NCBI GenBank assembly: GCA_945929845.1 | Contig: CAMEON010000001.1 | Span: 8,060-72,059, forward strand | Source of the DNA: an uncultured Clostridia bacterium | GTDB lineage: Bacteria; Bacillota; Clostridia; Oscillospirales; CAG-272 | Length of the DNA: 64,000 nucleotides | Direction of reading: 5' to 3' | Part shown: positions 718-18,203 of the stretch, in pieces | How positions within the stretch are numbered: position 1 is the stretch's first letter | Layout of the letters: each line of letters starts with the position of its first letter | The notes under the pieces: model-generated | Seen by the model: only the letters and a program-made list of their open reading frames with translations | Told to the model about the DNA's origin: nothing | The model's database searches: none | Position numbers and translations under genes: made by a program

Positions 718-1290
718 TTAAGCCAGAAAGTCATCTTCAGCATCGGTGGCAAAGTCAGATGCGGCACTTGCTTTACCGCCGAGGGGCTCGCCATCCCGGA
801 TCTTCTGCAGGTTGTTCAGACCACAGGCGATACCTTTGTTGCCGTTGGAGTTAAACGCGTAGAAGCTGATGCTGGCACGGCCATACACACCGCTGTACAC
901 CTCGGAGCGGGTCAGAATGGGATTGCAGTCTGCATCCACGATGCCCGGAGCGGTGGCGGAGTTGGCGTTGATGAAGTAGCAACCAGCGTAGGCAGGATCG
1001 TCCGGGCGCTCGGTATCCCCATCCCGCAAGGGCGTCTTGATGGCACTCAGCGGAGGCACGCTCTTGCCGTTGCCGCGCAGTTTGCCCTGGCCCTCCTCAT
1101 AAGCTGCCTGAATGGCGGCCTTGATCTTCCCCACCGTGACGGTATCGGTCTTGGGGATGATGAGGGATACGGAGAACTTGGGGGCACCACCATTGATGGA
1201 CTTTGCCTCCCAGACGTTGGCATAGGACCAGCGGGTGTCCTTGCCGGTGATAACTTTCATAGGGTTGGTGGGTTTTGTGTTGGTTTTCAT
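718..1290 (-). CDS. DUF2815-family phage protein (ssDNA-binding-like)
   Basis: 190-aa ORF with SD AAGGAGG. The pattern MKVITGKDTRWSYANVWEAKSINGG...FYAFNSNGNKGIACGLNNLQ is as in DUF2815 proteins that pair with DUF2800. Confidence 0.7.
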   Translation of the reverse strand: MKTNTKPTNPMKVITGKDTRWSYANVWEAKSINGGAPKFSVSLIIPKTDTVTVGKIKAAIQAAYEEGQGKLRGNGKSVPPLSAIKTPLRDGDTERPDDPAYAGCYFINANSATAPGIVDADCNPILTRSEVYSGVYGRASISFYAFNSNGNKGIACGLNNLQKIRDGEPLGGKASAASDFATDAEDDFLA

Positions 1291-1291
1291 A

Positions 1292-2416
1292 TCAGTTGTC
1301 CTCCTTAAAATCGTCGATGATGGTTGTCATGGCCGGACGTTTATCATTTTCCGGCACGAGGGTGGGTTTGCCTTGGGGCTTGGTAATCAGGCCTCCAAGG
1401 ATGTCGTTGAATTGCTTTTTCCCGAGAAGCGTAGTCATGGCAGTAACTCCAAGGAGCTTCTGCTCGTATGGGTCATACCCGGCGGCTTTGACAGCATTCA
1501 CCACAGCATTCTCATCTGTGTACCTGCGGTTGGCACGGCCTTCCACCAGCTTGTAGCCAGACCAGTGTTTCCCGCTGATCGCTGCCTGCAGGGCATATTC
1601 CTTAATATCGGATGCCCAGCTGATCAGCTCGTCCAACTGCCCGAGGATCGTTTCCACTTCTTCATCGGTGAGTAAGGGCGGCTGCCGGAACTCGTATTGT
1701 GCCAGCGCCATGTTGGCTTTGGCTCGCTCCCGGCAGTCGGCTTTGGCCTTGCAGAACTGGCACCACTCGCCGCAGTGAAATTCACCGCCGCCATTGAAGG
1801 CCAGTTTTGCGGTTGGCATCAGAACCTGGTTTGCCCAATCCAGTAGCTCCTGCCTGGGAACCGTACAGGTACTGATGTTGGCCCGGCGGGGCTGATAGAT
1901 GGTCATGCTGATGGTAGAAATATCATAGAGACAGTCGAAAATCTCCAAGGCTCCCAGCACATAGAGCCGCATCTGGGGATTGCCCTCGGCTTCCACCAGC
2001 ACTCCGCGACCATGCTTGTAGTCCACGATGTGTAGCGTATCATCCGCAACGATCACGCAGTCGCCGGTTCCGAAGCCGGACTCCACGTATTTGGAATAGT
2101 CCAGCTTTTGCTCGATCAGGACGATCGGGTCCGGGCAGTTTTGCTTGGCCTGCTCAACCAGCTCCAGCGCGAAGGCTGCATACCCGTTGGCGCATTCCTC
2201 CATCTCACCGTTGTAATAGGTGAGATTTTCAGTGGGATCTTCGGCCTCCATGCCCAGCGCCTTGCGGAGCTTGTACTCGCAGAGGCTGTGGGCATCAGTG
2301 CCCTCGGCGGCAAAATCGCTGCTTTTATCCTCATAGTTCTCGCAGAGCCGTGCCGAAGGTGGGCAGTTCAGCCACCGGCGGGAAGAGGAAGCGGAGAGAA
2401 GCGCATGTTTACCCAT
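1292..2416 (-). CDS. DUF2800-family PD-(D/E)XK (Cas4-like) phage nuclease
   Basis: 374-aa ORF. The N-terminus HALLSASSSRRWLNCPPSARL and the C-terminal Cys cluster CGEWCQFCKAKADC are characteristic of DUF2800. Confidence 0.7.
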   Translation of the reverse strand: MGKHALLSASSSRRWLNCPPSARLCENYEDKSSDFAAEGTDAHSLCEYKLRKALGMEAEDPTENLTYYNGEMEECANGYAAFALELVEQAKQNCPDPIVLIEQKLDYSKYVESGFGTGDCVIVADDTLHIVDYKHGRGVLVEAEGNPQMRLYVLGALEIFDCLYDISTISMTIYQPRRANISTCTVPRQELLDWANQVLMPTAKLAFNGGGEFHCGEWCQFCKAKADCRERAKANMALAQYEFRQPPLLTDEEVETILGQLDELISWASDIKEYALQAAISGKHWSGYKLVEGRANRRYTDENAVVNAVKAAGYDPYEQKLLGVTAMTTLLGKKQFNDILGGLITKPQGKPTLVPENDKRPAMTTIIDDFKEDN

Positions 2417-2726
2417 GGGTCAGGCCCTCCGCATCTGCGACCAGCGCCTTGTAATTTACCGGGTCAATCTCGGAGAGCTTATGGGCCCCATACCTTTGAA
2501 GAAGGGCACGAATTTGAGCGGTAAAGCCGTCACGAGACTTGGCTGCCAAGATGGCGCGAACATCCTCAAAGGCGAGCTGGGGTTCCGGAGCAGCTGGAGC
2601 AGGTTCTGCTTCGTGTTCAGCATCGGCACTGAACAAGCCGGTCAAGTAGTTGGCAATGTCATTAATAGAAGCAGCAATGTCCCGCAGTTCTTTGATGGTG
2701 GCATCCATCTCGCTCATTTTGCTCAT
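2409..2726 (-). CDS. Hypothetical phage protein
   Basis: 105-aa ORF with strong SD (AGGAGG) before ATG 2726. Its stop overlaps the DUF2800 start. I recognise no motif. Confidence 0.45.
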   Translation of the reverse strand: MSKMSEMDATIKELRDIAASINDIANYLTGLFSADAEHEAEPAPAAPEPQLAFEDVRAILAAKSRDGFTAQIRALLQRYGAHKLSEIDPVNYKALVADAEGLTHG

Positions 2727-2871
2727 AACGGTTTCCTCCTTCCTGAGATTGACTTGCCTGAGCCACGCGGATCATCTTGTGCGCCAGGCGTTTTGATACG
2801 GTACTAATTGCCATGAGCAGCCCGATGATTTCCTCATTTGCCGCCCTGGTATCCGCTTTGGATTGATACAT
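2662..2871 (-). CDS. Small hypothetical protein
   Basis: Internal ATG 2869-2871 of ORF 2662..3231 is preceded by AGGAGG. It encodes 69 aa starting MYQSKADTRAANEEIIGLLMAIS. It overlaps the next gene by 65 nt, so the call is tentative. Confidence 0.3.
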   Translation of the reverse strand: MYQSKADTRAANEEIIGLLMAISTVSKRLAHKMIRVAQASQSQEGGNRYEQNERDGCHHQRTAGHCCFY

Positions 2872-3022
2872 CGGCGGTTCCTCCTTTCTAAGGACTTGTC
2901 CGTTCCTGTCCTCAGTACCCACTGGAGGAAAGCTGCTGTTTTGAACGAAAATATCTGAGACTTTTTTGAGAAAAATCTGGCCACCGCAGAATGTACCTGC
3001 AGTGGCCGGTTTGGTTACATTG

Positions 3023-3526
3023 TTATAAGTAGAGATCCTCCAGTGCTTCACGCAGTGCTGCAAGGACTTTCCGTTTCTGGTAGTTGACGGTGGACTGCCG
3101 CCTGCCCATGGCCGCTGCAATCTCCCGTTCCGACATCCCCGCCATGATGAGCTGGCAGATGCGCTTGCCGTCCGGGTCCAACCGTTCCAGTTCAGCGTAC
3201 AGTGCCTGAAGCAGTTCCCGGTCAGCGACAATGGATTCTGGACTGGGAGCTCCGGCGGTCAGGGTATCGCCGAGCGTCAGATCATCGTCCTCACCGCCAA
3301 TGGGAGTGTCGATGGAGACTTTCTTTCCGGCAGCATAGTACGGACAGCCAGGGCAGATGCCATCACATTTCCAGAGCTGGGCCTTGGTGCAGCGGCACTC
3401 GCCGTTTTTCTGCGCGTGATATCGGGTGTTCCAAATTGGCTGGTAATAGGCGCGATAGACTTCCTCGGTAACCTCGACGAGCTCACCGTCGACGGGAATA
3501 AAGTACTGCTTGTCCTTGTTTTTCAT
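3023..3526 (-). CDS. Sigma-70 family (region 4) phage/ICE-type sigma factor
   Basis: ORF track 3023..3541. ATG 3524-3526 lies 8 nt after GGAGG. The C-terminal LERLDPDGKRICQLIMAGMSEREIAAAMGRRQSTVNYQKRKVLAALR is a sigma region-4 HTH. Confidence 0.65.
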   Translation of the reverse strand: MKNKDKQYFIPVDGELVEVTEEVYRAYYQPIWNTRYHAQKNGECRCTKAQLWKCDGICPGCPYYAAGKKVSIDTPIGGEDDDLTLGDTLTAGAPSPESIVADRELLQALYAELERLDPDGKRICQLIMAGMSEREIAAAMGRRQSTVNYQKRKVLAALREALEDLYL

Positions 3527-3530
3527 TGAA

Positions 3531-3631
3531 ATTTCCTCCATTCGATTTGCTTGGAATGGAGGAAATCTCGTGGTCAGCTGCCAAGTGGCAATAGTAATCC
3601 AACCGCAGTCCTGATGGAGTCACCTCCATTC
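3531..3631 (-). promoter_or_regulatory. Possible RBS-sequestering leader of the sigma gene (mutually exclusive pairings)
   Basis: A 13-bp perfect inverted repeat, 3531-3543 with 3554-3566, covers the SD. Segment 3553-3562 can alternatively pair with 3622-3631 (10 bp). Confidence 0.3.
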
Positions 3632-3974
3632 CGGATTGCAGCTTCCCGCTCAATAGGCAGCTGTAGATATTCGGTTTTACCGTCATCTATCGTTGAGCCA
3701 TCGCTGATCAAACGACGCGATGTTTGACAGGCATGTACCAAGATGCAATCGCAAAAATCCTGCTGCTTAGCGAAATTTACTTTCGCGTTTACAAAATTAT
3801 GTAGATTTTTGCGAAATCTCATGATACAATAAGTAGTGTCGGATTTTAGCTGATAATTTGTCGCCACCATCGGTTCACTACACCACTAATTTTAGTGAGA
3901 CAAGCCCAAAAAGTAATTAGTGCAGAGTTCGAGTAGAATTCGATAATATTTCGAGTTAGAAAGGAGAGAGCGCA

Positions 3975-5186
3975 GTGACAGAACTTTGTTTCGCTGAATT
4001 CGCAAAATGCCTTCAAAGCGCTATGCAGCCGCCCAATGACGACAAAGATGTTGTTGAACTTTTATTGGGTTGGATCACTGACATGCCAAGCGTTGTTGAT
4101 AAGAAAGGTAATCCAATCCATATTGCACCGTCACTGGTCAGCGATCTCCTTAACCGAAAAGTGGATGTTCCAAAAGCAATTAAAAATATTTGCAGTACAA
4201 GAAAGGTTCTAACTGAAGCGAAAAAGCATTTTGAATATCAGGTCCTGCCCTACCTGAATCCGATTGTCAGCGACGACATGTTTGAGGCAATGGGAAAAGA
4301 TGTAGAGGGTGATGAGATAATGGCCTCCAAAAAGAAAAAGGAACTGGCGTCTCTTCTCGAAAATGGAAAAGAAGCCGAGTTCCTTGGGCAGTTACTCATG
4401 TATGTAATCAATAGAGAAAATCGTCTTTCTAACAAACCTGTTGTAAGCGAGGATATTCCTCTACTGGCAGAGGCGGATTTTGAATGTCCAATTTGCCATG
4501 CTCCATTGGTAGAGTATGTAAAGAATACACCGGTTAAAAAATATGAAGTAGTTAAACTATATCCTGACAACGCCACAGAGTTTGTTTCAGAATTCGCTTT
4601 GATTCCAAGGCCAAAGCGGGTAGATGCGCCTGGAAACAAAATGGCATTATGCCGTGAGCACGCAGAGGAATACATGCTAGAGCCTACTGCAGAGGAATAT
4701 GGCCAGTTGCGGGAAATCAAAGATCGGTTGGCTGCAGCATACTCTTTGCGTGTAGATGTTAATGACTCTGCTCTTGAAGATGAAATCCAAAACGTGTTAT
4801 ATGGCTTGGCAGGGATTACCGATGATACGGAGTTAAAAGAACTACCACTGAATGCCTTGCGTTTGGACCAGAAGATCCTACCAGAGAATCGCCTGTTGAA
4901 AAATGATGAAATGACGCGGGTCTTACGCTATTACAATTTTATAGATGACCTGTTTTCTGCAATGGATCGCGATGGTACTGGTGATTTTGACCTTATAGCA
5001 TCCGAAGTTGCGACGGCATATAAAAAGCTTGATAATGGCCAACTCTCTCAAGATGAGATTGTAAATCAGTTGGCAGAGTGGATAAAGAATAAATCAGGTG
5101 TTGGTAGTAAGAATATGCGGGCTTGCCATATCGTGGTCGCATATTTCATACAGAACTGTGAGGTGTTCCGTGAAATTTCCAAGTAA
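3975..5186 (+). CDS. ABC-3C / Lamassu-like effector component (LmuA-like position), catalytic domain unrecognised
   Basis: 403-aa ORF with a GTG start 6 nt after AAGGAGAG. It is the first gene of a tightly overlapping trio. There is a Cys/His cluster, CPICH...GNKMALCREH. The C-terminus ...ACHIVVAYFIQNCEVF resembles the coupling domains of ABC-3C effectors; this rests on memory, not a search. Confidence 0.6.
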   Translation: MTELCFAEFAKCLQSAMQPPNDDKDVVELLLGWITDMPSVVDKKGNPIHIAPSLVSDLLNRKVDVPKAIKNICSTRKVLTEAKKHFEYQVLPYLNPIVSDDMFEAMGKDVEGDEIMASKKKKELASLLENGKEAEFLGQLLMYVINRENRLSNKPVVSEDIPLLAEADFECPICHAPLVEYVKNTPVKKYEVVKLYPDNATEFVSEFALIPRPKRVDAPGNKMALCREHAEEYMLEPTAEEYGQLREIKDRLAAAYSLRVDVNDSALEDEIQNVLYGLAGITDDTELKELPLNALRLDQKILPENRLLKNDEMTRVLRYYNFIDDLFSAMDRDGTGDFDLIASEVATAYKKLDNGQLSQDEIVNQLAEWIKNKSGVGSKNMRACHIVVAYFIQNCEVFREISK

Positions 5187-5397
5187 AGTGACGCCTTATC
5201 AGGCGAGTATTTTGGCTAAGTTTCCTGTGGTTTTGTCCTGCTTGGAAACGGAAGACATGAAGCCTGACATGCTATATAAAAAAGTGAAATCTAAGGTTTC
5301 AGATGTCGGGGAGTTCTTGGAGATACTAGATTGCCTGTATGCATTAGGTAAGATTGAATTGTACCCGGAAGGAGGTGTGCTTCATTATGTTGGTTGA
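5170..5397 (+). CDS. ABC-3C middle component / LmuC-like small protein
   Basis: A 75-aa reading from GTG 5170 (SD GAGGTG just upstream; alternative starts GTG 5188 or ATG 5098). The pattern ASILAKFPVVLSCLE...ML...EFLEILDCLYALGKIEL is typical of small winged-helix middle components. It overlaps both neighbours. Confidence 0.5.
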   Translation: MKFPSKVTPYQASILAKFPVVLSCLETEDMKPDMLYKKVKSKVSDVGEFLEILDCLYALGKIELYPEGGVLHYVG

Positions 5398-7036
5398 GAT
5401 TATGTGTGAGGAATTCAAAGATCATGGAACGCCACGAGGTCGCATTCAGCTACATTCTGGACTTAATACCGTCATGGGCAGTTCGTCCGGCTCAAATTCG
5501 ATTGGTAAATCCACGTTTCTCATGATTATCGATTTTGTGTTTGGCGGCGATGACTATGTTGAGAAACTGACTGACGTGCAAACAGAAGTCGGTGAACATA
5601 GGATCTGCTTTGCCTTTCAATTTAAAGATGGAGTACACTATTTCTCTCGATCTAATGTCGACTATAAAAACGTGCAGAAGTGTGACAAGGATTATAGACC
5701 GCTTAAAGATGGCCTGATCTCTATAACTCAGTATCTATCGTTCCTACAAACGCATTACGACATGGACTTGGATGGATTGACATTCAGAAATGCGATAGGT
5801 CGATCAATACGAGTGTATAAACGTGAGACGCTGGATGAAGAGCATCCTCTCCACCAAGCCAAGCAAGAAACAGCCAAGTCTGCTATCGAAGGTCTACTAA
5901 AGCTGACGGATTTGTATTCAGGGATTGAGGCGCAGTCCAAAGTTACCGCAGAGGCGAAAGATAAATATTCCACTTTCAAGAAAGCTCAAAAGTATCAGTA
6001 TATCCCATTCGTTACAAAGCAGTCAGATTACAACAAGAATGAAGGCCGCATTGCCGAGTTAACCGCGCAAGCAGAGGAACTTGCTCGTAAAAGCTCTAGC
6101 GGATTATTGGATTTGGATTCTGTTCAGGCAGAACAGCTTTCTATCCTTCAGGGTAAGCTGTCAAATTTCAAAAGGCAACGTTCCCATTTGTTAGCACAAT
6201 TGCGGGCAATCCGAGCCGATCAGAATTTGGGTAAAAAGAGCTTTAAACGAAATTATGATGACCTTCTTCGCTTTTTCCCAGAAGTAAATCTGCAGCGTAT
6301 CGAGGCTATCGAAGGATTCCATAAGCAGTTAGTTGGAATATTGAAAAAGGAGTTTTCGGAAACTGAAGAAAGTATTCAGGCCACGCTGGCGCTTATTGAA
6401 TCTGAAATGGCACAGATTGAAGCGTCTATCTCGCAGATGGCCAAAACAACGGATTTGTCTAAGGTTGTACTGGAACAGTATGCAGCTATTGACAAAGAGC
6501 TTAAAACGCTTCAGACTGCAAATGAAAATTATTTGAAGACGATGGAGCTGTCCCAGGTTGCAAAGGCATATGAGGAAGAATTAAATCGTCTTGTGGTAGA
6601 GCAGATCACTATTATGCAGCAAGAGATCAACGCCGAAATGGTGAGAATAAATAACGAAATTTATGGGGGTCGAAAAACATCTCCTACGCTCACAATATCG
6701 GACGCCTCGCATTATGTGTTTTTCACACCGAGAGATGGTGGGACTGGTGCGCAGTATAAAGGTCTTGTTGTGTTTGACTTGGCAATGCTAGAGTTGACGA
6801 GGCTGCCCGTTATAGCGCATGACTCGGTTATGCTGAAGCACATTGAAGACGATGCAATAGAAAAAATAGTGGAATTGTATGCCAGTACACCTAAACAGGT
6901 ATTTATCGCTATGGATAAGGAAGGCTCATATACACCCAAAACCCAGAAAATTCTGGAGGCCACAAAAATATTGCAACTGAGTCCTGGCGCGGGTGCTCTA
7001 TTTGGACGCACTTGGAACGACGTGGAAAGAACGTAA
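5387..7036 (+). CDS. Coiled-coil ABC (SMC/Rad50-like) ATPase, DUF2326-like; ABC-3C ATPase / LmuB-like
   Basis: The start MLVEIMCEEF (ATG 5387) overlaps the stop of the small ORF. Walker A is GSNSIGKST (~5477-5515). A long E/K/Q/L-rich central region is coiled-coil-like. The C-terminal part has DGGTGAQYKG followed by LPVIAHDS (signature and Walker B-like). Confidence 0.75.
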   Translation: MLVEIMCEEFKDHGTPRGRIQLHSGLNTVMGSSSGSNSIGKSTFLMIIDFVFGGDDYVEKLTDVQTEVGEHRICFAFQFKDGVHYFSRSNVDYKNVQKCDKDYRPLKDGLISITQYLSFLQTHYDMDLDGLTFRNAIGRSIRVYKRETLDEEHPLHQAKQETAKSAIEGLLKLTDLYSGIEAQSKVTAEAKDKYSTFKKAQKYQYIPFVTKQSDYNKNEGRIAELTAQAEELARKSSSGLLDLDSVQAEQLSILQGKLSNFKRQRSHLLAQLRAIRADQNLGKKSFKRNYDDLLRFFPEVNLQRIEAIEGFHKQLVGILKKEFSETEESIQATLALIESEMAQIEASISQMAKTTDLSKVVLEQYAAIDKELKTLQTANENYLKTMELSQVAKAYEEELNRLVVEQITIMQQEINAEMVRINNEIYGGRKTSPTLTISDASHYVFFTPRDGGTGAQYKGLVVFDLAMLELTRLPVIAHDSVMLKHIEDDAIEKIVELYASTPKQVFIAMDKEGSYTPKTQKILEATKILQLSPGAGALFGRTWNDVERT

Positions 7037-7066: not shown

Positions 7067-7315
7067 ATGCGTTTCAGTTACAACAAACTCTTTAAATTGC
7101 TAATAGACAAGGGAATCAAAAAAAGAGAGCTCTGCGAGATGGCTGAAATAAGTGCCACCTCTATAGCAAAGCTTGGTCATGGGGGAAATGTTAACACAGA
7201 AGTTTTAATGAAAATCTGTAATGCGCTGAACTGTGATGTGGGGGACATTATGGAATTTGTTAAAGACGATTTGACTGACGCCAAATCGGAAAGGCTTGAG
7301 AACGGAGGCAAATGA
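7067..7315 (+). CDS. XRE-family helix-turn-helix transcriptional regulator
   Basis: 82-aa ORF with SD AGGAGGG. KRELCEMAEISATSIAKLGHGGNVNTEVLMKICNALNCDVGDIMEF is a classic Cro/C1-type HTH. It abuts the hsdM start. Confidence 0.8.
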   Translation: MRFSYNKLFKLLIDKGIKKRELCEMAEISATSIAKLGHGGNVNTEVLMKICNALNCDVGDIMEFVKDDLTDAKSERLENGGK

Positions 7316-7317
7316 TC

Positions 7318-8820
7318 ATGGCAGAGAAAAATACCGCTGACATCGGGTTCGAAAAGCAAATATGGGATGCTGCCTGCGTTCTCCGTGGCAACATGGATGC
7401 ATCTGAGTATAAAAATGTGGTTTTGGGCCTGATTTTTCTGAAATATATATCAGATCGCTTTGATGAGAAACATAGGGAATTGGTTGCCGAAGGCGATGGT
7501 TTCGAAGAAGATATTGATGAGTATACATCCGAAGGAATCTTTTTCGTTCCTGCTGGTGCGAGGTGGAACGAGATTTCGGCTAAGGCGCATACACCGGAAA
7601 TTGGCACTGTCATCGATGATGCCATGCGGGCCATTGAGAAAGAAAATAAGCGTCTTAAGGATATTCTTCCCAAAAATTTTGCACGTCCTGAGTTGGACAA
7701 GCGCCGCCTGGGTGATGTTGTGGATCTATTCACCAATATCCAGATGATCGAACATGGAAGCGAGAAGGACATCTTAGGCCGTACCTACGAGTATTGCCTT
7801 TCTATGTTTGCGGAGCAGGAAGGCAAGCGTGGCGGTGAATTTTTCACGCCTTCTTGCGTTGTACGAACGCTCGTTGAAGTGCTCCAGCCATTTAAGGGAC
7901 GTGTATACGATCCTTGCTGTGGATCCGGTGGCATGTTCGTGCAGTCGGCAAAATTTGTAGAAAACCACAGCGGAAACATCAGCAATATTTCCATCTATGG
8001 TCAGGACTCCAATCCAACTACATGGAAGATGGCGCAGATGAATCTGGCGATCCGAGGGATCGAACCAGATCTTGGTGCGTATGCGGCAGATACGTTTCTT
8101 GAGGACCAGCATCCGACCATGCGCGCAGATTACATTATGGCCAATCCCCCTTTTAATCTCTCGGACTGGGGTGCGGACAAATTAAAGGATGATGTTCGCT
8201 GGCAATACGGTATGCCTCCGGCAGGCAATGCCAACTTTGCATGGTTGCAGCACATGATTTATCACCTAGCTCCTGCCGGGAAAATTGGAATGGTGCTTGC
8301 CAACGGTTCCCTCTCCTCCCAATCTGGCGGCGAAGGTGAAATTCGGAAAAACATCATCAACGCGGATCTGGTGGAGTGTATTGTGGCCATGCCGACGCAG
8401 TTGTTTTACACCACCCAGATTCCGGTTTCTCTGTGGTTCCTGAACAAGCAGAAAAAGCAGCCGGGTAAGACTTTATTTATTGACGCGCGGAAGCTGGGAA
8501 CAATGGTGAGCCGCAAGCTGCGTGAGTTGACGGATGAGGACATTGCAAAAATTGCCGATACCTACAAAACGTATGTTGCAGGCAACCTTGAGAATCAAAG
8601 AGGATTCTGCGCGGTTGTCACCACGCAGGACATAGCCAAGCAGGACTATATTCTCACGCCGGGCCGCTATGTTGGTATCGAGGATCAGGAAGATGACGGA
8701 GAACCTTTTGAAGAAAAAATGAGCCGCTTGACCGCTGAGCTTTCTGAACTCTTTGCAAAGTCTCATGAACTTGAGGCTGAAATCAAGGAGAGACTGGGGG
8801 CGATTGGGTATGACATCTAA
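7318..8820 (+). CDS. hsdM: Type I restriction-modification system, DNA methyltransferase subunit M
   Basis: ORF track 7312..8820. ATG 7318 has better SD spacing (GGAGG at 7304-7308). The HsdM N-terminus is FEKQIWDAACVLRGNMDASEYKNVVLGLIFLKYISD. The SAM motif is DPCCGSGGMF and the catalytic motif is NPPF. Confidence 0.95.
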   Translation: MAEKNTADIGFEKQIWDAACVLRGNMDASEYKNVVLGLIFLKYISDRFDEKHRELVAEGDGFEEDIDEYTSEGIFFVPAGARWNEISAKAHTPEIGTVIDDAMRAIEKENKRLKDILPKNFARPELDKRRLGDVVDLFTNIQMIEHGSEKDILGRTYEYCLSMFAEQEGKRGGEFFTPSCVVRTLVEVLQPFKGRVYDPCCGSGGMFVQSAKFVENHSGNISNISIYGQDSNPTTWKMAQMNLAIRGIEPDLGAYAADTFLEDQHPTMRADYIMANPPFNLSDWGADKLKDDVRWQYGMPPAGNANFAWLQHMIYHLAPAGKIGMVLANGSLSSQSGGEGEIRKNIINADLVECIVAMPTQLFYTTQIPVSLWFLNKQKKQPGKTLFIDARKLGTMVSRKLRELTDEDIAKIADTYKTYVAGNLENQRGFCAVVTTQDIAKQDYILTPGRYVGIEDQEDDGEPFEEKMSRLTAELSELFAKSHELEAEIKERLGAIGYDI

Positions 8821-9997
8821 ATGGCATGAAGTTCCTCTTCGAGATTTAGTGGGATATATTTCTAAAGGCATTGCTCCTTCGTATGCTGATGATGAAACAG
8901 ATACAACCATTAGAGTCCTCAATCAAAAGTGCAATAGAAATTATCAGATAAGTTATTCTGAGTCAAGGCTACATGACACAGCAAAAAAGAAAGTTCCTGC
9001 TGAACGATATGTTAAAAGAGATGACATTCTCATTAACTCAACCGGAGCAGGAACAGCCGGGCGCATCGCGCAGATTGGGGCCGTCCCTTGCGATACAACC
9101 GTTGATGGTCACATGATTATTCTCCGTGCAAACGAAAAGGTTATGCAACGGTATCTCGGATATGCCCTCAAAGCCCATCAACGGGAAGTTTTACAGTTAG
9201 ATGAAGGCTCTACCGGACAAACCGAGTTAAACAGAGAAAGATTGCTTGACGAGATCAGAATTTGCTATCCAGAGTCTTTTTCTGAGCAAGAAGAGATTGT
9301 GCTGATGCTTGAAAGCATAGACCACAAAACGCTTATCAACAAGAAGATAAACGATAATTTACAGCAGCAAGCATTCGCTCTGTTTGACAAGCTCATGATT
9401 GACGCTGACAATGATGAATGTACGGTATCTGATTATGCGTATCTCAATCCGAAGCGAGTATTGGCAAAGAATCAGATTGCCCGAAGTATTGACATGAGTC
9501 AATTATCAACAAGCGGAGCATTCCCTTTGGGATGGGATATAAAACCATTTAACGGAGGAATGCGTTTTGCCAATGGTGATACCCTTTTAGCACGTATTAC
9601 CCCATGTCTTGAAAACGGCAAGACTGCCTTCGTTGACTTTCTTGATAAAGACGAGGTTGCGTTTGGCTCGACAGAGTATATTGTTCTTGCACCCAGAAAT
9701 GGTGTACCACCTGAGATGCTGTACTGTCTGGCTCGTTACCCTGCATTTGTCGATTACGCAGTCAAAAACATGAATGGTAGCAGCGGAAGACAGCGTGTTT
9801 CTGCTGAAACAATAGGACAATTCCATCTTCCGAAATTTGTTAAACAAAGCCTATCGGCATTTAGAGAAGCGGTAACACCAATGTTCTTAAAAATGCGTTA
9901 TAACTCTCTTGAAAACATGAGGTTGGCCGAACTGCGCGATGCGCTCTTGCCCAAGCTCATGTCAGGTGAGATTGATGTCTCTGACATCCAGCTCTAA
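8810..9997 (+). CDS. hsdS: Type I R-M specificity subunit S (full length: TRD1 - central repeat - TRD2 - C-terminal repeat)
   Basis: ATG 8810 overlaps the hsdM stop. There are two target-recognition domains, separated by ...INKKINDNLQQQAFALFDKLM... and ending ...LRDALLPKLMSGEIDVSDIQL. Confidence 0.9.
   Translation: MTSKWHEVPLRDLVGYISKGIAPSYADDETDTTIRVLNQKCNRNYQISYSESRLHDTAKKKVPAERYVKRDDILINSTGAGTAGRIAQIGAVPCDTTVDGHMIILRANEKVMQRYLGYALKAHQREVLQLDEGSTGQTELNRERLLDEIRICYPESFSEQEEIVLMLESIDHKTLINKKINDNLQQQAFALFDKLMIDADNDECTVSDYAYLNPKRVLAKNQIARSIDMSQLSTSGAFPLGWDIKPFNGGMRFANGDTLLARITPCLENGKTAFVDFLDKDEVAFGSTEYIVLAPRNGVPPEMLYCLARYPAFVDYAVKNMNGSSGRQRVSAETIGQFHLPKFVKQSLSAFREAVTPMFLKMRYNSLENMRLAELRDALLPKLMSGEIDVSDIQL
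9347..9361 (+). repeat. Shufflon core repeat R1 (ATAAACGATAATTTA) inside the hsdS central conserved region
   Basis: Read directly. The same 15-mer recurs at 11577-11591 and, inverted, at 12221-12235. A 14/15 inverted match lies at 10002-10016. Confidence 0.85.
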
Positions 9998-10016
9998 GCC
10001 GCTAAATTATCGTTTA
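9994..10016 (-). repeat. Shufflon repeat R2 (inverted), starting at the hsdS stop
   Basis: CTAAGCCGCTAAATTATCGTTTA is the exact reverse complement of 11578-11600 (23 nt). Confidence 0.85.
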
Positions 10017-10107
10017 CCGCTTTAATAACTCTCACCAGTGGCGAGAGTTCTACCAAAGGAACTGCCACTGATTGTCGTTCTCTTAATCTACACGAAGGAG
10101 ATACGAC

Positions 10108-11091
10108 ATGAACGAAGAAATCATTCAAGAGATAGTGCGTAAAATGCTGCCTCATCTCAACAACGAACAGCTCAAAAAGCTGAAAAATGTGCTGGAGGAC
10201 ACGCTCCACGGCTTTACTGTACTTTCAAGCGAAGATGCACCGAAGCCAAAAGAGCGAGATGCGGTTGATGCTTTTATCGTTGCAAAACGCATTGAAGGAT
10301 GTTCCGAGAAGACCCTGACCTATTACCGAAAGACTATAGAGGCGATGATCTCCGGTATTGGAAAAACACCGCAGCAAATCACAACAGATGATCTCCGCAA
10401 GTACTTGACGAGCTATCAGGTCCAACGGAAATCCAGCAAAGTCACGATTGATAACATCCGCCGCATTCTGTCTAGTTTCTTCTCTTGGCTGGAAGACGAA
10501 GACTTTATTGTGAAAAGTCCGGTTCGCCGGATTCACAAAGTCAAAACAGCTAAGGTTATCAAGGACACTTATACGGATGAGGCGTTGGAGCAGATGAGGG
10601 ATAGCTGCACTACGGCAAGAGATTTGGCTATTATTGATCTTCTCGCGTCCTCTGGGATACGTGTTGGCGAGATGGTTATGCTAAACAGAGATGATATCAA
10701 CTTCATTGAGCGGGAATGCGTCGTCTTTGGTAAAGGGAATAAGGAACGGCTTGTCTATTTCGATGCCAGGACGAAAATTCACTTGCAGAACTATCTTGAA
10801 AGTCGCACAGATGACAACCCCGCCTTATTCGTCTCGCTTAAAGCCCCCTATGAACGCTTGATGATTGGTGGCGTGGAGACCAGACTCCGAGAACTCGGAA
10901 AACGCTTGAACCTCCCGAAGGTCCATCCGCACAAGTTCCGCCGGACGCTGGCTACATCAGCCATAGACAAAGGAATGCCCATAGAACAAGTCCAGCAGCT
11001 CTTGGGGCATCAGAAGATCGACACCACCATGCACTATGCGATGGTGAAACAACAGAATGTGAAGCTGGCGCACAGAAAATACATCGGATAG
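10108..11091 (+). CDS. Tyrosine site-specific recombinase (hsdS shufflon invertase)
   Basis: 327-aa ORF with SD GAAGGAG. It carries phage-integrase family motifs: ...HPHKFRRTLAT... and LLGHQKIDTTMHY (catalytic Tyr). It is flanked by the inverted repeats R2 and R3. Confidence 0.9.
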   Translation: MNEEIIQEIVRKMLPHLNNEQLKKLKNVLEDTLHGFTVLSSEDAPKPKERDAVDAFIVAKRIEGCSEKTLTYYRKTIEAMISGIGKTPQQITTDDLRKYLTSYQVQRKSSKVTIDNIRRILSSFFSWLEDEDFIVKSPVRRIHKVKTAKVIKDTYTDEALEQMRDSCTTARDLAIIDLLASSGIRVGEMVMLNRDDINFIERECVVFGKGNKERLVYFDARTKIHLQNYLESRTDDNPALFVSLKAPYERLMIGGVETRLRELGKRLNLPKVHPHKFRRTLATSAIDKGMPIEQVQQLLGHQKIDTTMHYAMVKQQNVKLAHRKYIG

Positions 11092-11102
11092 GAGTGCAAA
11101 AC

Positions 11103-11600
11103 ATGGAACTTAAAGAATACCGGTTTGATGAAGTAACCATTAACTTTGATAAGAAGAGAGTTCCACTTTCTGGCGCACAGCGCGAAAAAAGGAAAGGAAA
11201 ATATCGCTATTACGGAGCGCAGGGCGTAATTGATCATATTGATGATTTCATCTTTGACGGTACTTATCTTCTGATTGCCGAAGATGGTGAAAACCTAAAA
11301 TCGAAAAAACAAAACATAGCTCAAGTCGTTGAAGGGCAATTCTGGGTAAATAACCATGCTCACATTGTTCAGGGCAACGAACTATGTGATACTCGGTATC
11401 TAAGCTATTTATTAAACAGCATAGACTTGTCTGGCTATGTTACCGGATCGGCACAACCGAAATTGAGCCAAGCTAATTTGAATGCGGTCACGCTATTTTT
11501 GCCGCCTATCTTCATTCAGAAGAAGATTGTAGATTATCTGTATCTGTTTGACAAGAAGATTGCCGTTAATCAACAGATAAACGATAATTTAGCGGCTTAG
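11103..11600 (+). CDS. hsdS: Half-size HsdS (single TRD, TRD1-type) ending in the central repeat plus AA-stop
   Basis: ORF track 11094..11600. ATG 11103 lies 8 nt after AGGAG and 12 nt after the recombinase stop. The TRD-like sequence ends ...KKIAVNQQINDNLAA*. Confidence 0.75.
   Translation: MELKEYRFDEVTINFDKKRVPLSGAQREKRKGKYRYYGAQGVIDHIDDFIFDGTYLLIAEDGENLKSKKQNIAQVVEGQFWVNNHAHIVQGNELCDTRYLSYLLNSIDLSGYVTGSAQPKLSQANLNAVTLFLPPIFIQKKIVDYLYLFDKKIAVNQQINDNLAA
11577..11600 (+). repeat. Shufflon repeat R3
   Basis: ATAAACGATAATTTAGCGGCTTAG. It shares 23 nt with R2 (inverted) and 17 nt with R4 (inverted). Confidence 0.85.
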
Positions 11601-12238
11601 AATTTGACCTCAGAAACGTCAAGTTCACCAGACATCAGCTTAGGCAAAAGTGCGTCCCTTACTGCGGATAGCCTCTTGTTCTCGCCTCTATTGGAATGGA
11701 TTTGCATTAGAATGTGAAAGGCAAGAGCGTTAAACTCTTCCAGTTCCTCGTCGGATGGGAGTGCAACTGGATATGTCATGATCTGCTGCTTATCTCCACG
11801 GGGCATTTTTGTCCCTTTTGATCCAGCAACCATGAAGGCGAAGAATTTGTCGGCATATAGCGTACTGAATAGGTATGCCGCATATCGCGGTTGAGCTGGT
11901 GTGAAGCAAAGAACATCGGTTGAGCAGCCGCATTCGCCCTCACAGTAGACAATTTTTTTGAAGTAAGGACGAATATTGGAAATCAAGGTATCTCCCTCAT
12001 GACAAGCGGTGGTCTGCGGCGTAGTTGGAAGGCTTGTAGCCTCGGTTGCACCAAACTTTCCCGGTAACATATTCTCCGTTGAGAAGTAAGTGCTGACATC
12101 CAGCTTGGAAACAGCTACTTTATCCTTGGAAAACGAGCATATATCAGAGAGGATTCCCTGATCTGCTGCCGAGATGACATCTCCAAAATGCTCTTGATAT
12201 ACTGTTTGAAGGAGATCAGCTAAATTATCGTTTATCAT
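11597..12238 (-). CDS. hsdS: Silent or alternative hsdS 3' cassette (central repeat - TRD2-type domain - C-terminal repeat) on the opposite strand
   Basis: 213-aa ORF. It begins MINDNLADLL (the central-repeat sequence) and ends ...VRDALLPKLMSGELDVSEVKF*, parallel to the C-terminus of the full hsdS. It overlaps the 11103-11600 ORF tail-to-tail by 4 nt. Confidence 0.75.
   Translation of the reverse strand: MINDNLADLLQTVYQEHFGDVISAADQGILSDICSFSKDKVAVSKLDVSTYFSTENMLPGKFGATEATSLPTTPQTTACHEGDTLISNIRPYFKKIVYCEGECGCSTDVLCFTPAQPRYAAYLFSTLYADKFFAFMVAGSKGTKMPRGDKQQIMTYPVALPSDEELEEFNALAFHILMQIHSNRGENKRLSAVRDALLPKLMSGELDVSEVKF
12219..12235 (-). repeat. Shufflon repeat R4 (inverted)
   Basis: GCTAAATTATCGTTTAT is the reverse complement of ATAAACGATAATTTAGC (matching R3 over 17 nt and R1 over 15 nt). 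Confidence 0.85.
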
Positions 12239-12262
12239 TCATTTTATGAACGGAGGTCGAAT

Positions 12263-15200
12263 ATGCCAAGTTTATTTACAGAGGATACCTACGAGCAAGC
12301 TATCATCGAATTGTTCGAGAATATGGGCTATGAGCACCTCTATGCTCCGGATTTGGATCGGGATTATACCAGTCCTCTTTTGGATGCAGTTCTGCAAGCC
12401 AGCTTGGTGCGCATAAACCGTGGCCTTCCTGCCGAAGCCATTGATGAGGCAATTTCCAAGCTGCGCAATTTCGACACGGGCAGCCTTGTCCAGAAAAACG
12501 CCATCTTCATGGATTACTTACAGAATGGTATCACGGTCAAGTTCTTTGTAAAGGGCGAAGAGCGGTCCTCAATTGTTCGCTTGATTGATTATATGAATGT
12601 GGATCATAATACCTTCTATGCAGTCAATCAATTCACCTATATAGAAAATGGCAATAATCGCCGGCCAGATATCATCCTCTTCATCAACGGTCTTCCGCTG
12701 GTTCTGATGGAACTGAAAAGCCCTTCAAAGGATGAAGTGGGCGCGGAAAATGCATATCATCAGATTCGTAACTATATGCAGGACATCCCGTCTATGTTCT
12801 ACTACAATGCAATCTGTGTGATCAGCGACCTGTCCACCAACAAGGCAGGTACGATCACTTCCGGTTTAGATCGCTTCATGGAGTGGAAAACAAAAGACGG
12901 CAACTACGAGAATACCGCCTATGCCCAGTTCGACACATTTTATGAGGGAATGTTCCAGAAGGAGCGGCTGCTGGATATTCTGAAGAACTTTATTCTCTTC
13001 TCCGGCAGCGGGCAAGGCCGATTTAAGGTTCTGGCGGGTTACCATCAATACTTTGCAGTGCGTAAAGCAATCGAAAAGGCCAAAGTCGCTACGAAAACAG
13101 ATGGGAAAGGCGGCGTATTTTGGCATACACAAGGCAGCGGAAAATCCCTGTCTATGGTTTTCTATGCCCACTTGCTACAGGATGTACTGGATAACCCTAC
13201 AATCGTAGTGATGACGGATCGAATTGATCTGGATGATCAGCTTTATACACAGTTCTCCCAATGTGCGGATTTCCTCCGTCAGACCCCCGTACAGGCAGAG
13301 AGCAAGGAGCATTTGAAATCACTTCTGGATGGGCGCAATGCCAATGGGATCATCTTTACAACCATGTTCAAGTTTGAACGTGGCGAGAAGCCATTGTCCG
13401 AGCGGAGAAATATCGTTGTGATGGCCGATGAAGCGCATCGCGGGCAGTATGGATTCAATGAGAAAATCGTAATGTCTGAAAATGAGTATGGCCAGAAAGA
13501 AGCACATACTGTGATCGGCAACGCCCGGATTATCCACGATGCCCTTCCGAATGCAACCTTTATCGGCTTTACCGGTACGCCCATCTCCGCAAAGGACCGC
13601 AATACCCGTGAGGTTTTTGGCGACTATATTGATATCTATGATATGACCCAAGCTGTAGAGGACGGCGCAACCCGTCCGGTTTATTATGAGAGTCGCGTTG
13701 TCCACCTGAAACTTGACCAGAACACCTTGGCGCTGATTGATTCCACATATGATATTCTTGAGCAGCAATCGGATGCAGTTACCATCGAGAAAAGCAAAAA
13801 GATGCTGGGTCAGATGGAAAGCGTGCTGGGTGCCGATTCTACAATTGAGTCACTGTGCGATGACATTGTAGAACACTATGAAAAATATCGCGCAAACCTG
13901 TTGACCGGAAAGGCCATGATTGTTGCCTATTCCCGCCCCATTGCCATGAAAATTTACCGTAGAATTCTTGAGATTCGACCGACATGGAAAGAGAAAGTCG
14001 GTGTGGTTATGACCAGCGGTAACAACGACCCGGAAGACTGGAAAGAGATTATCGGCACAAAGTCTCACAAGGAAGAGTTGGCGCGCAAATTCAAGGATAA
14101 CAATGATCCGATGAAGATTGCCATTGTTGTCGACATGTGGCTGACAGGCTTTGACGTACCCTCGCTGGCGACAATGTATGTATATAAGCCGATGCATGGG
14201 TACAACCTCATGCAGGCAATCGCCAGAGTCGACCGTGTATTTAAGGACAAAGAAGGTGGCCTCATTGTTGATTACGTTGGTATTGCTTCTGCGTTGAAGT
14301 CTGCAATGAAGGAGTACACCAAGCGGGATCAATCCAAGTACGGCGATATGAATATCGCCAAAGTTGCCTATCCGAAATTTCAAGAGAAGCTTCAGGTTTG
14401 CAAAGATCTTTTGCACGGGTTCGATTTCAGTGGATTTGTTGGCGGTTCGCCTTTGACGATGGCCAAGCTCATCACCGGCGGTGTAAACTTTGTACTGGAT
14501 GCAAAGAAGCCGGAACGAAAAGACTTATTTCTGAAAGAAGCCATGCTCTTAAAGCAATCTCATTCCCTGTGCTCCAGCATGACTACAGACACAGAAAGGC
14601 ATGAAGCAGCCTATATGGAAGCTGTTCGCTCCACAATCATTAAAATAACGTATGGCGGAACAGGAGGCAAAACGCTTTCGCTGAAAGAAATCAACGATCA
14701 AATCAATGAACTACTGAAAGCGGCCGTTCAGAGCGAAGGAGTCATCAGCCTGTTTGACAGCAAAAAAACGGCAGGAGAGAATTTTAGCTTATTTGATCCC
14801 GCAGTACTCGAAGAGATCTCCAAGATGAAGGAGAAGAACATTGCCGTTGAGATCTTGAAAAAGCTGATGGCCGAACAGGTATCTCTGTATAAGCGGACAA
14901 ACGTTGTCCAATCACAGAAACTCTCTGAGAAAATTTCACAGTTGATGAATGCTTATTACAACGGCCTGATTTCTAATGAAGAAGTCATTAAAGAACTTCT
15001 AAAGACCGCTGAGGAAATCTCCAATCTATATAAAAATGGGCAAAAGCTCGGCCTTTCTCAGGAGGAATTAGCATTTTATGACGCTCTCACAAAGCCTGAG
15101 CATATCAAGGATTTTTACCATAACGATGAATTAGTGGCCTTAACAAAGGAACTCACAGAAATGCTCCGTAAAAATCGTACGATCGACTGGCAGAAAAAAG

Positions 15201-15340
15201 AGACAGCCAGGGCAACGATGCGGAAAATGGTCAAACGGCTGTTGAAGAAATACAAGTACCCGCCGGAAGATTACGATTTTGCAATCAACACGGTTATCAG
15301 CCAGTGTGAATTGTGGACAGATAATGCTTCAATGGCATAA
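12263..15340 (+). CDS. hsdR: Type I restriction enzyme, endonuclease/translocase subunit R
   Basis: 1025-aa ORF with SD GGAGG. Walker A is HTQGSGKSLSM and the DEAH box is VVMADEAHRGQYG. The HsdR-type N-terminus is MPSLFTEDTYEQAIIELFENMGYE. Confidence 0.95.
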   Translation: MPSLFTEDTYEQAIIELFENMGYEHLYAPDLDRDYTSPLLDAVLQASLVRINRGLPAEAIDEAISKLRNFDTGSLVQKNAIFMDYLQNGITVKFFVKGEERSSIVRLIDYMNVDHNTFYAVNQFTYIENGNNRRPDIILFINGLPLVLMELKSPSKDEVGAENAYHQIRNYMQDIPSMFYYNAICVISDLSTNKAGTITSGLDRFMEWKTKDGNYENTAYAQFDTFYEGMFQKERLLDILKNFILFSGSGQGRFKVLAGYHQYFAVRKAIEKAKVATKTDGKGGVFWHTQGSGKSLSMVFYAHLLQDVLDNPTIVVMTDRIDLDDQLYTQFSQCADFLRQTPVQAESKEHLKSLLDGRNANGIIFTTMFKFERGEKPLSERRNIVVMADEAHRGQYGFNEKIVMSENEYGQKEAHTVIGNARIIHDALPNATFIGFTGTPISAKDRNTREVFGDYIDIYDMTQAVEDGATRPVYYESRVVHLKLDQNTLALIDSTYDILEQQSDAVTIEKSKKMLGQMESVLGADSTIESLCDDIVEHYEKYRANLLTGKAMIVAYSRPIAMKIYRRILEIRPTWKEKVGVVMTSGNNDPEDWKEIIGTKSHKEELARKFKDNNDPMKIAIVVDMWLTGFDVPSLATMYVYKPMHGYNLMQAIARVDRVFKDKEGGLIVDYVGIASALKSAMKEYTKRDQSKYGDMNIAKVAYPKFQEKLQVCKDLLHGFDFSGFVGGSPLTMAKLITGGVNFVLDAKKPERKDLFLKEAMLLKQSHSLCSSMTTDTERHEAAYMEAVRSTIIKITYGGTGGKTLSLKEINDQINELLKAAVQSEGVISLFDSKKTAGENFSLFDPAVLEEISKMKEKNIAVEILKKLMAEQVSLYKRTNVVQSQKLSEKISQLMNAYYNGLISNEEVIKELLKTAEEISNLYKNGQKLGLSQEELAFYDALTKPEHIKDFYHNDELVALTKELTEMLRKNRTIDWQKKETARATMRKMVKRLLKKYKYPPEDYDFAINTVISQCELWTDNASMA

Positions 15341-18128: not shown

Positions 18129-18203
18129 TGGTGACCCCAGCGGGAATCGAACCCACGCCTTCGCCGTGAGAGGGCGACGTCTTAGCCGCTTGACTATGGG
18201 GCC
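18129..18203 (-). tRNA. tRNA-Glu (anticodon CUC)
   Basis: The reverse complement folds as a cloverleaf: GGCCCCATAGTCAAGCGGCTAAGACGTCGCCCTCTCACGGCGAAGGCGTGGGTTCGATTCCCGCTGGGGTCACCA. The anticodon loop is CTCTCAC with stem TCGCC/GGCGA. The T-loop is TTCGATT and the CCA is encoded. Confidence 0.9.

Follow-up and report, generated by a model that had tools for sequence, protein, structure and literature searches.

Which part of a Lamassu-like effector would act against an invader when the nuclease carried by its relatives appears to have been inactivated? This question is raised by three co-oriented open reading frames, ORF1 to ORF3, at positions 3975-7036 of a 64,000-nt stretch of human-gut Clostridia DNA (the window; all coordinates are positions within it). 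Lamassu systems are among the commonest bacterial immune systems, and to our knowledge mechanistic understanding of them is confined to versions with a nuclease (Cap4). An initial annotation of the window had described ORF1-ORF3 as an ABC-three-component (ABC-3C) or Lamassu-like module whose effector, ORF1, was free of recognisable nuclease motifs. Our analysis indicates that ORF1 contains an HNH nuclease domain predicted to be catalytically dead, preceded by a helical domain (N-domain) that is a putative new effector module. The explanation that best fits the results as a whole, to which we assign a probability of roughly 0.6 and which draws its mechanism from analogy, is a prophage-borne short type II Lamassu system with a dead HNH domain, in which the N-domain would be the effector and the release of ORF1 would be triggered by DNA ends or replication intermediates.

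Gene layout and family of the module

ORF1 (3975-5186, forward strand) runs from a GTG at 3975 to a TAA at 5184-5186 and encodes the 403-amino-acid (aa), LmuA-like effector component; a ribosome-binding site read directly from the sequence, AAAGGAGAG, lies upstream at 3960-3968 on the same strand. ORF2 (5170-5397, forward), the LmuC-like middle component of 75 aa, begins at a GTG preceded by GAGGTG, overlaps the end of ORF1 by 17 nt and stops at the TGA at 5395-5397. ORF3 (5387-7036, forward), an LmuB-like ATPase of 549 aa, begins at an ATG within ATGTTGGTTGA preceded by GGAGGTG, overlaps ORF2 by 11 nt and ends with the TAA at 7034-7036. The aligned N-termini of relatives are conserved at these positions: M1-L2 of ORF3 is invariant, and ORF2 relatives begin M-x-x-P-x-K with P4 and K6 invariant. 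This argues that the short starts of ORF2 and ORF3 are the real ones. Identical products of 403, 75 and 549 aa have been called as genes in public assemblies, where the exact ORF2 product was present on 412 contigs. The overlapping boundaries proposed in the initial annotation matched the sequence exactly and all of the motifs quoted there (GSNSIGKST, DGGTGAQYKG, LPVIAHDS, ILAKFPVVLSCL, FLEILDCLYALGKIEL and VAYFIQNCEVF) were found.

Each of the three proteins matched a Pfam family. ORF1 matched PF20277 (CTD11) over residues 259-398 (1.1e-32, 113.9 bits, cut-off 27.7), ORF2 matched PF20292 (MC7) over residues 3-71 of 75 (2.8e-29, 101.4 bits, cut-off 27) and ORF3 matched DUF2326 over residues 421-540 (1.3e-16, 61 bits, cut-off 28.7). 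A scan of one genome per species yielded 126 confirmed relatives, and 80 loci, from different species, were kept. In essentially every locus with enough DNA, the order was ORF1-ORF2-ORF3 and the gene boundaries overlapped or abutted. Because the scores lie well over the curated cut-offs and the gene order recurs, the three-family assignment is far above chance, and the families and synteny together mark the module as a conserved operon of the ABC-3C kind.

We recognised ABC-3C systems by features taken from the Pfam names, whose families derive from Krishnan et al. 2020, and from later papers. The module has an effector with a C-terminal CTD domain, an MC-family middle component and, in third place, a coiled-coil ABC ATPase. 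Likewise, ORF1 has the plan of LmuA (an N-terminal effector domain, a linker and a C-terminal docking domain) and the genes stand in the order lmuA-lmuC-lmuB. Later literature treats ABC-3C as type II Lamassu, LmuA-LmuC-LmuB. It is therefore very likely that the module is a Lamassu/ABC-3C system, and within that group it is a "short" type II Lamassu. The architecture first proposed was thus upheld, including the placing of ORF2 as middle component and of the ORF1 C-terminus as a coupling domain. In PADLOC, LmuB models matched ORF3 weakly (1.3e-6 and 1.2e-5) and an LmuA model matched ORF1, over residues 4-124 of the N-domain alone (4.4e-4). An NCBIfam scan of the module proteins gave nothing useful.

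The initial reading of ORF3 as a Rad50/SMC-type ATPase of the DUF2326 kind also held. In an alignment of 30 diverse relatives, which underlies all of the conservation figures for ORF3, residues N37, S38, I39, G40 and K41 of the Walker A motif (GSNSIGKST, residues 35-43; 5489-5515, forward) were invariant, as was the GTG of a signature-like motif at residues 452-454. The Walker B motif, VIAHDS (residues 475-480; 6809-6826, forward), is deviant and lacks the catalytic Glu; the family sequence is hhhHDS, in which D479 is invariant and H478 and S480 are nearly so. On its 3' side, in KQVFIAMD, the H-loop His is replaced by Asp. The family strand reads KQxFIAxD, and Q504 and D510 are conserved. According to a 2025 survey, short LmuB proteins average ~600 aa and have a Walker A of Gx4GK[ST] and a Walker B of hhhhD[Q/S/T/E], all of which ORF3 fits with its 549 aa, GSNSIGKST and VIAHDS.

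The AlphaFold2 (AF2) model of ORF3 (mean predicted local distance difference test score, pLDDT, 86) shows a split head and a long antiparallel coiled-coil arm (residues ~178-426; 5918-6664, forward) formed by helices 178-281 and 302-426. When the model was compared with the PDB by Foldseek, the best match was Bacillus subtilis YydD (9a6c_A, E = 4.9e-19), from the integrative model of YydD-YydB, over 611 aligned columns with an identity of just 14%; YydB itself matched ORF1 only marginally (E 3.6). LmuB chains (9ux7_A, 9hqu_A, 9uxh_F and 9hqx_B) matched with E-values of 4e-12 to 1e-10, those of Vibrio cholerae and Salmonella LmuB falling between 4e-11 and 1e-10. An Smc head scored comparably to LmuB (2e-12), and Rad50 and SMC heads also matched. 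On the predicted structure, then, the fold assignment appears secure, and a specific closeness to LmuB is consistent with the model but not exclusive to it. At the sequence level, neither ORF1 nor ORF3 matched any chain in the PDB. A profile of the ORF3 family matched influenza hemagglutinin HA2 in the PDB (E ~1e-3), which was discarded as a coiled-coil artefact.

The V. cholerae DdmABC/LmuACB and Salmonella LmuACB systems share the architecture of the window module and its SMC-like sensor with a deviant Walker B, but their families (Cap4 nuclease, CTD7 and MC3) differ from those found here. At the tip of the ORF3 arm, no zinc hook (CxxC) was present, and there is no Cys across residues 100-549. 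The hook is known to be optional, as short LmuB proteins contain 0-2 copies and some clades have none. Where the hook would be expected (residues 296-312; 6272-6325), all 30 relatives have the motifs F296-F297-P298 and F311-H312, with L293, F297, P298, F311 and H312 invariant. These may be an alternative dimerisation or DNA-contact element.

The domains of ORF1

ORF1 has homologues of ~400 aa in 106 clusters, whose sole annotation is CTD11. Its AF2 model was confident (pLDDT 90). Three domains were delimited: the all-helical N-domain (residues 1-155; 3975-4439, forward), a degenerate HNH (beta-beta-alpha zinc) domain (residues ~156-258; 4440-4748, forward) and the CTD11 coupling and oligomerisation domain (residues 259-403; 4749-5186, forward). 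The last of these ends in FIQNCEVF, and F391, Q393, N394, C395, V397 and F398 are invariant.

The identity of the middle domain became apparent from short relatives of ~250-270 aa, found in the genome scan, that consist of HNH and CTD11 and match ORF1 over residues ~150-403 alone. Their hosts include Bacillus, Proteobacteria, Bacteroidota, Planctomycetota, Melainabacteria and a methanogen. Within their N-terminal 100 residues these short forms carry a textbook HNH motif, CPxC...[FY]ExAHIYP...N.IALCxxCHxxFD, and they match models of CBASS Cap5-type HNH effectors at ~1e-9. In the alignment, the window protein reads CPIC...YEVVKLYP...NKMALCREHAEEY (CPIC...N...CREH). The zinc ligands C171, C174, C226 and H229 are retained together with N221, but the general-base His is replaced by K194, the metal-binding His by A230 and the following Asp by Tyr. 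Thus, of the residues needed for HNH catalysis (His, Asn and a metal-binding His or Asn), the window has only the Asn, while the zinc site and the fold are kept, with strands at 179-194 and a helix at 227-235 in the AF2 model. Consistent with this, HNH domains (Cap5, Cas9 and phage HNHc) were the only Foldseek matches of the ORF1 model with high probability (0.96-1.0, over 77-121 columns), at weak E-values (0.08-0.6). A search of the PDB with the ORF1 profile returned marginal zinc-finger or HNH matches alone (E >= 0.16).

The substitutions are systematic among proteins of the ~400-aa (long) form. Both catalytic His residues were present in 42 of the 43 short forms in the genomic loci and in none of the 36 long forms. 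In a wider alignment of 78 long forms, the first His position was occupied by S (16), H (16), K (15), Q (12), N (10), E (3), Y (3), P (2) and R (1), and the second by A (67) or S (11). By contrast with these positions, C171, C174, N221 and Y233 were invariant in the same alignment, C226 was present in 74/78 and residue 229 was His or Cys in 76/78. As judged from these sequences, the HNH domain is catalytically dead and retained as a zinc-stabilised structural relic. The relic is not decaying, given a mean pairwise identity of 0.44, compared with 0.41 for the N-domain. The statement that the effector lacks nuclease motifs was accordingly wrong, since an HNH-derived zinc domain is present from which both catalytic His residues are gone. 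The suggestion that ORF1 is an uncharacterised effector variant was right, but the reason is a replacement of the effector and not an absence of motifs.

In a tree of the ORF3 ATPases (a quick neighbour-joining distance tree with midpoint rooting), the long-form systems, including that of the window, formed a single clade nested among HNH-intact short forms. This nesting suggests one gain of the N-domain with loss of the nuclease. In the simplest history, an LmuA made up of HNH and CTD11 would have acquired the N-domain once, by fusion, and would afterwards have lost its nuclease activity. The first His is missing even from the most divergent long form, whose N-domain is nearer to the PADLOC LmuA type described below. 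HNH-type short Lamassu systems, such as those of Bacillus pseudomycoides, Erwinia amylovora, Streptococcus prophages and a Shewanella plasmid, have the same CTD11/MC7/DUF2326 families, gene order and overlaps as the window module, and their genes are annotated as 'HNH endonuclease' or 'ABC-three component system protein'. Their LmuA (~250 aa) has both catalytic His residues and no N-domain, whereas the window LmuA has an N-domain and a dead HNH. The PADLOC system PDC-M68 (A/B) is a related but distinct family without a middle-component model or an N-domain: its similarity to the window proteins is weak over the full length (4e-5 for ORF1 residues 218-399 and 3e-5 for ORF3), compared with 1e-12 and 1e-16 for the short forms.

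The N-domain consists of eight short helices in the AF2 model. When 23 members were scanned singly against Pfam at E<=10, no family was common to more than 2 of them, and NCBIfam gave none. The sole match of the window N-domain to a curated model was to the N-terminal part of PADLOC LmuA PDLC03857. A profile search of 1.84 billion representative proteins, clustered at 50% identity, yielded 714 clusters at E<=1e-3, of which 364 also passed E<=1e-10. The domain was N-terminal in 135 of 140 newly listed proteins. Among 109 proteins of at least 250 aa, its partners were CTD11 (38), CTD6 (34), DUF2806 (5) and CTD10 (2); it also precedes STAND NTPases (NACHT, NB-ARC and nSTAND) with TPR, WD40 or pentapeptide arrays, and a further class of ~278 aa has no annotation. 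Its best-conserved residues are D113 (94%), N149, Y143, F136, L137, D101 and S56. Omega, the ratio of nonsynonymous to synonymous divergence (dS), was 0.08-0.17 for the N-domain where dS was unsaturated; in the relic dS was saturated in every pair and these figures refer to the N-domain only. At the codon level the N-domain is under purifying selection.

The proteins in which the N-domain is joined to CTD6 (~334 aa) match PADLOC LmuA PDLC03857 over their full length (6e-72), and weakly match the first 150 positions of the PADLOC HamA1 model. One of them (P0134) lies in an operon encoding the CTD6 protein, an MC2 protein, a 594-aa ABC ATPase and a small helix-turn-helix (HTH) protein (locus L081). 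This Lamassu type likewise has the N-domain where the effector is expected, follows the same three-gene plan and has a trailing small HTH gene, but it combines CTD6/MC2 with an AAA_23 ATPase and has no HNH relic, in contrast to the CTD11/MC7 of the window; the N-domain is its only LmuA domain besides CTD6. With CTD11, CTD6 and STAND NTPases as partners, the N-domain takes the place of the effector in combination with at least three different sensor chassis.

Several identities for the N-domain were considered and set aside. HEPN was rejected because the R-x4-6-H motif is missing. For RNase III, the window 'EFLGQ' resembles ERLEFLGD, but the acidic residues of that family are unconserved and there was no fold match. 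A membrane helix was rejected on hydropathy (maximum 19-residue Kyte-Doolittle mean 1.02), and a Pfam EAD or death-like adaptor because no matches were found. Foldseek matches of the ORF1 model to globin, phycobilisome and spidroin structures were dismissed at probabilities <0.2.

A second N-domain protein was observed in three loci. In L023 (5251-6923 of that locus), and also in L025 and L030, the Lamassu module is preceded, at a distance of 2-3 kb, by a separate two-gene cassette. The first gene encodes a 276 aa protein with a closely similar N-domain and a ~120 aa beta-rich C-terminal part that has no Pfam match, and it overlaps the start of the second, which encodes a 280 aa protein. The two genes may be a further candidate pair for defence, or they may partner the module by pairing of like domains.

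Proposed mechanism and alternatives

The solved Lamassu complexes of V. cholerae, Salmonella and Bacillus have established A1B2C1 sequestration, sensing of DNA ends and CTD-mediated tetramerisation of LmuA. The activation mechanism is carried over to the window by analogy with these. The system would be an abortive-infection or anti-mobile-DNA defence. An ORF3 dimer, with its coiled-coil arm of ~100 residues, its hookless tip and a slow-hydrolysis Walker B (HDS), would serve as the sensor and, together with ORF2, would keep one ORF1 monomer inactive through CTD11. When a phage or plasmid invades, its DNA ends or replication intermediates, combined with slow ATP turnover, might then cause ORF1 to be released. 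Freed ORF1 would oligomerise through its CTD, and this would switch on the N-terminal effector part, the soluble N-domain being the working effector.

Several observations weigh against this explanation. No PADLOC LmuC model matched, and the Lamassu models overall were weak on the window proteins; we found no experimental study of a CTD11/MC7 system in the literature. A His is still present at the first catalytic position in 8/36 long forms in the loci, as in the 16/78 of the alignment. The N-domain has no transmembrane segment and no recognisable catalytic constellation, and when the ORF1 model was compared with the PDB and BFVD by Foldseek, neither the N-domain nor CTD11 had a credible match. 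In the PADLOC HamA1 model it precedes a nuclease domain and so can accompany a nuclease. In view of the missing catalytic motif, fold match and transmembrane segment, an effector role for the N-domain is argued from its position and its co-occurrences. We nevertheless lean slightly towards the N-domain as the effector, in preference to the relic or to a partner acting in trans. A broader proposal is possible and more tentative: that the N-domain represents a new, oligomerisation-activated, non-nuclease class of effector common to CTD6 and CTD11 Lamassu, STAND NTPases and some HamA proteins, with the HNH domain as scaffold only.

The alternative that survives best, which we regard as unlikely, is that the N-domain is a non-toxic adaptor or regulator, comparable to death-like effector-associated domains, that recruits or activates a partner, or that the system does not kill and acts, for example, by DNA binding. 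The scarcity of conserved polar residues in the N-domain and its lack of a fold match would suit such a role, as would its place ahead of the nuclease in HamA1, and a Lamassu clade without an effector domain has been reported in the literature. The 276 aa N-domain protein and its 280 aa partner upstream of the module in L023, L025 and L030 could likewise indicate like-domain pairing. However, the window has no second N-domain ORF, and the long forms have no conserved extra gene except that for the HTH protein. Moreover, the CTD6 operon and the STAND proteins offer no candidate effector other than the N-domain.

It is improbable, at a level well below the adaptor, that the HNH-like domain is a still-active nuclease with non-canonical residues that the N-domain assists. 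Retention of the zinc ligands, N221 and the fold, constraint on the domain, and the first catalytic His kept in a minority of members all speak for this reading. Yet nine different residues occupy the general-base position, the metal-binding His is Ala or Ser in 78/78 long forms, and the Asp of the short-form CHxxFD is an invariant Tyr. The region is also more acidic than in the intact short forms (mean net charge -3.5 compared with +1.4). Because the domain is conserved yet acidic and its catalytic residues are gone, we read it as a retained structural linker and not as a nuclease or DNA-binding module.

It is scarcely credible that the prophage carries the module as a passenger that is decaying or has no part in defence, such as a remnant or an element-maintenance function: a frameshifted ORF1 in one relative (L007, from Criibacterium bergeronii) points that way, but in the window the three genes are intact, their products recur identically on many contigs, purifying selection is strong and the genes head a defence island.

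The locus can be viewed as a natural experiment in which the sensor chassis was conserved, the ancestral nuclease inactivated and a widespread domain without a Pfam model placed in the effector position. The short forms, with an intact HNH and no N-domain, and the long forms, with an N-domain and a dead HNH, make a clean example of modular effector exchange. As the N-domain is shared with STAND NTPases and a second Lamassu lineage, its function, once worked out, would account for how several defence families kill or signal. HNH is already among the listed effectors of short Lamassu, and one LmuA model of PADLOC already includes the N-domain, so the module adds a variant to a known type and does not found a new one; it does offer a solid lead towards an effector mechanism. 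In the literature, to which our access was incomplete, we found no description of the fusion of the N-domain to the HNH domain, of the systematic inactivation of the HNH in this fusion, or of how widely the N-domain is spread over STAND NTPases and two lineages of Lamassu.

The fourth gene and the genomic setting

A Cro/C1-type HTH gene (7067-7315, forward; 82 aa; Pfam HTH_26, 1.6e-19) begins 30 nt past ORF3, and its stop overlaps the start of hsdM. In 26 long-form loci, an HTH homologue was directly 3' of ORF3, at roughly 10-40 nt in most, and the gene after it varied in length (156 to 1227 aa) and family. Since the HTH gene adjoins ORF3 while the genes that follow it change, it appears to travel with the Lamassu module and not with the restriction-modification (RM) system, and is unlikely to be simply a controller of the neighbouring type I RM. 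It is probably a regulator and an accessory fourth member of the module. The three-gene unit proposed at the outset therefore stands for ORF1-ORF3 and probably extends to 7315, which would make the module a three-gene, probably four-gene, Lamassu/ABC-3C anti-phage operon on the prophage of a gut bacterium. The N-domain/CTD6/MC2 operon of L081 ends with a small HTH gene of another family (HTH_17; 4408-4620 of that locus), which hints that N-domain systems tend to bring their own regulator.

Upstream of the module, on the reverse strand, are prophage replication and regulation genes (718-3541) for an Enc34-type single-stranded DNA-binding protein (SSB), a DUF2800 PD-(D/E)XK exonuclease and a sigma-70 region-4 protein, together with a 105 aa ORF. 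The best matches of the exonuclease, at 64-70% identity, come from human-gut phages of Oscillospiraceae and Acutalibacteraceae. In many long-form loci the module likewise has sigma-like, DUF2800 or SSB genes nearby, which suggests that it occupies a cargo slot conserved within one family of prophages. In the phage and plasmid collections, no long forms were found.

Downstream of the HTH gene is a type I RM system with probable phase-variable specificity (7312-15340), consisting of hsdM (7312-8820), hsdS (8753-9997) and hsdR (12263-15340). A tyrosine recombinase gene (10108-11091) and partial hsdS sequences (11094-11600, forward, and 11597-12238, reverse) lie between hsdS and hsdR. The recombinase gene is flanked by the two arms of a 119-nt inverted repeat (9911-10029 and 11565-11683; 75% complementary). 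A GmrSD-type modification-dependent restriction enzyme (15385-17451) with GmrSD_N, GmrSD_C and a C-terminal DUF5655 makes up the third system of the island; its exact product occurs on 145 contigs. A tRNA-Glu(CTC) gene (18129-18203, reverse strand) lies just beyond. The GC content was 42-48% at ~4-19 kb, compared with 54-63% over most of the remaining window, and climbs from ~45% to ~60% around 19-20 kb; the tRNA gene and this step are likely to mark the integration site and the right boundary of the prophage and island. With prophage genes upstream and the RM, GmrSD and tRNA genes downstream, the module is, as the initial annotation had placed it, first in a defence island, which lies at the prophage end beside the tRNA. 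Such a variable cargo slot in a human-gut Clostridia prophage (order Eubacteriales) bears on phage-phage and phage-plasmid competition in the gut.

The closest ORF1 from a cultured strain (81% identical) is that of L007 (C. bergeronii CCRI-22567; 8001-9213 of the locus). It is frameshifted after ~residue 287, the result of either a pseudogene or a sequencing error, and its ORF2, ORF3, HTH and hsdM neighbours are intact.

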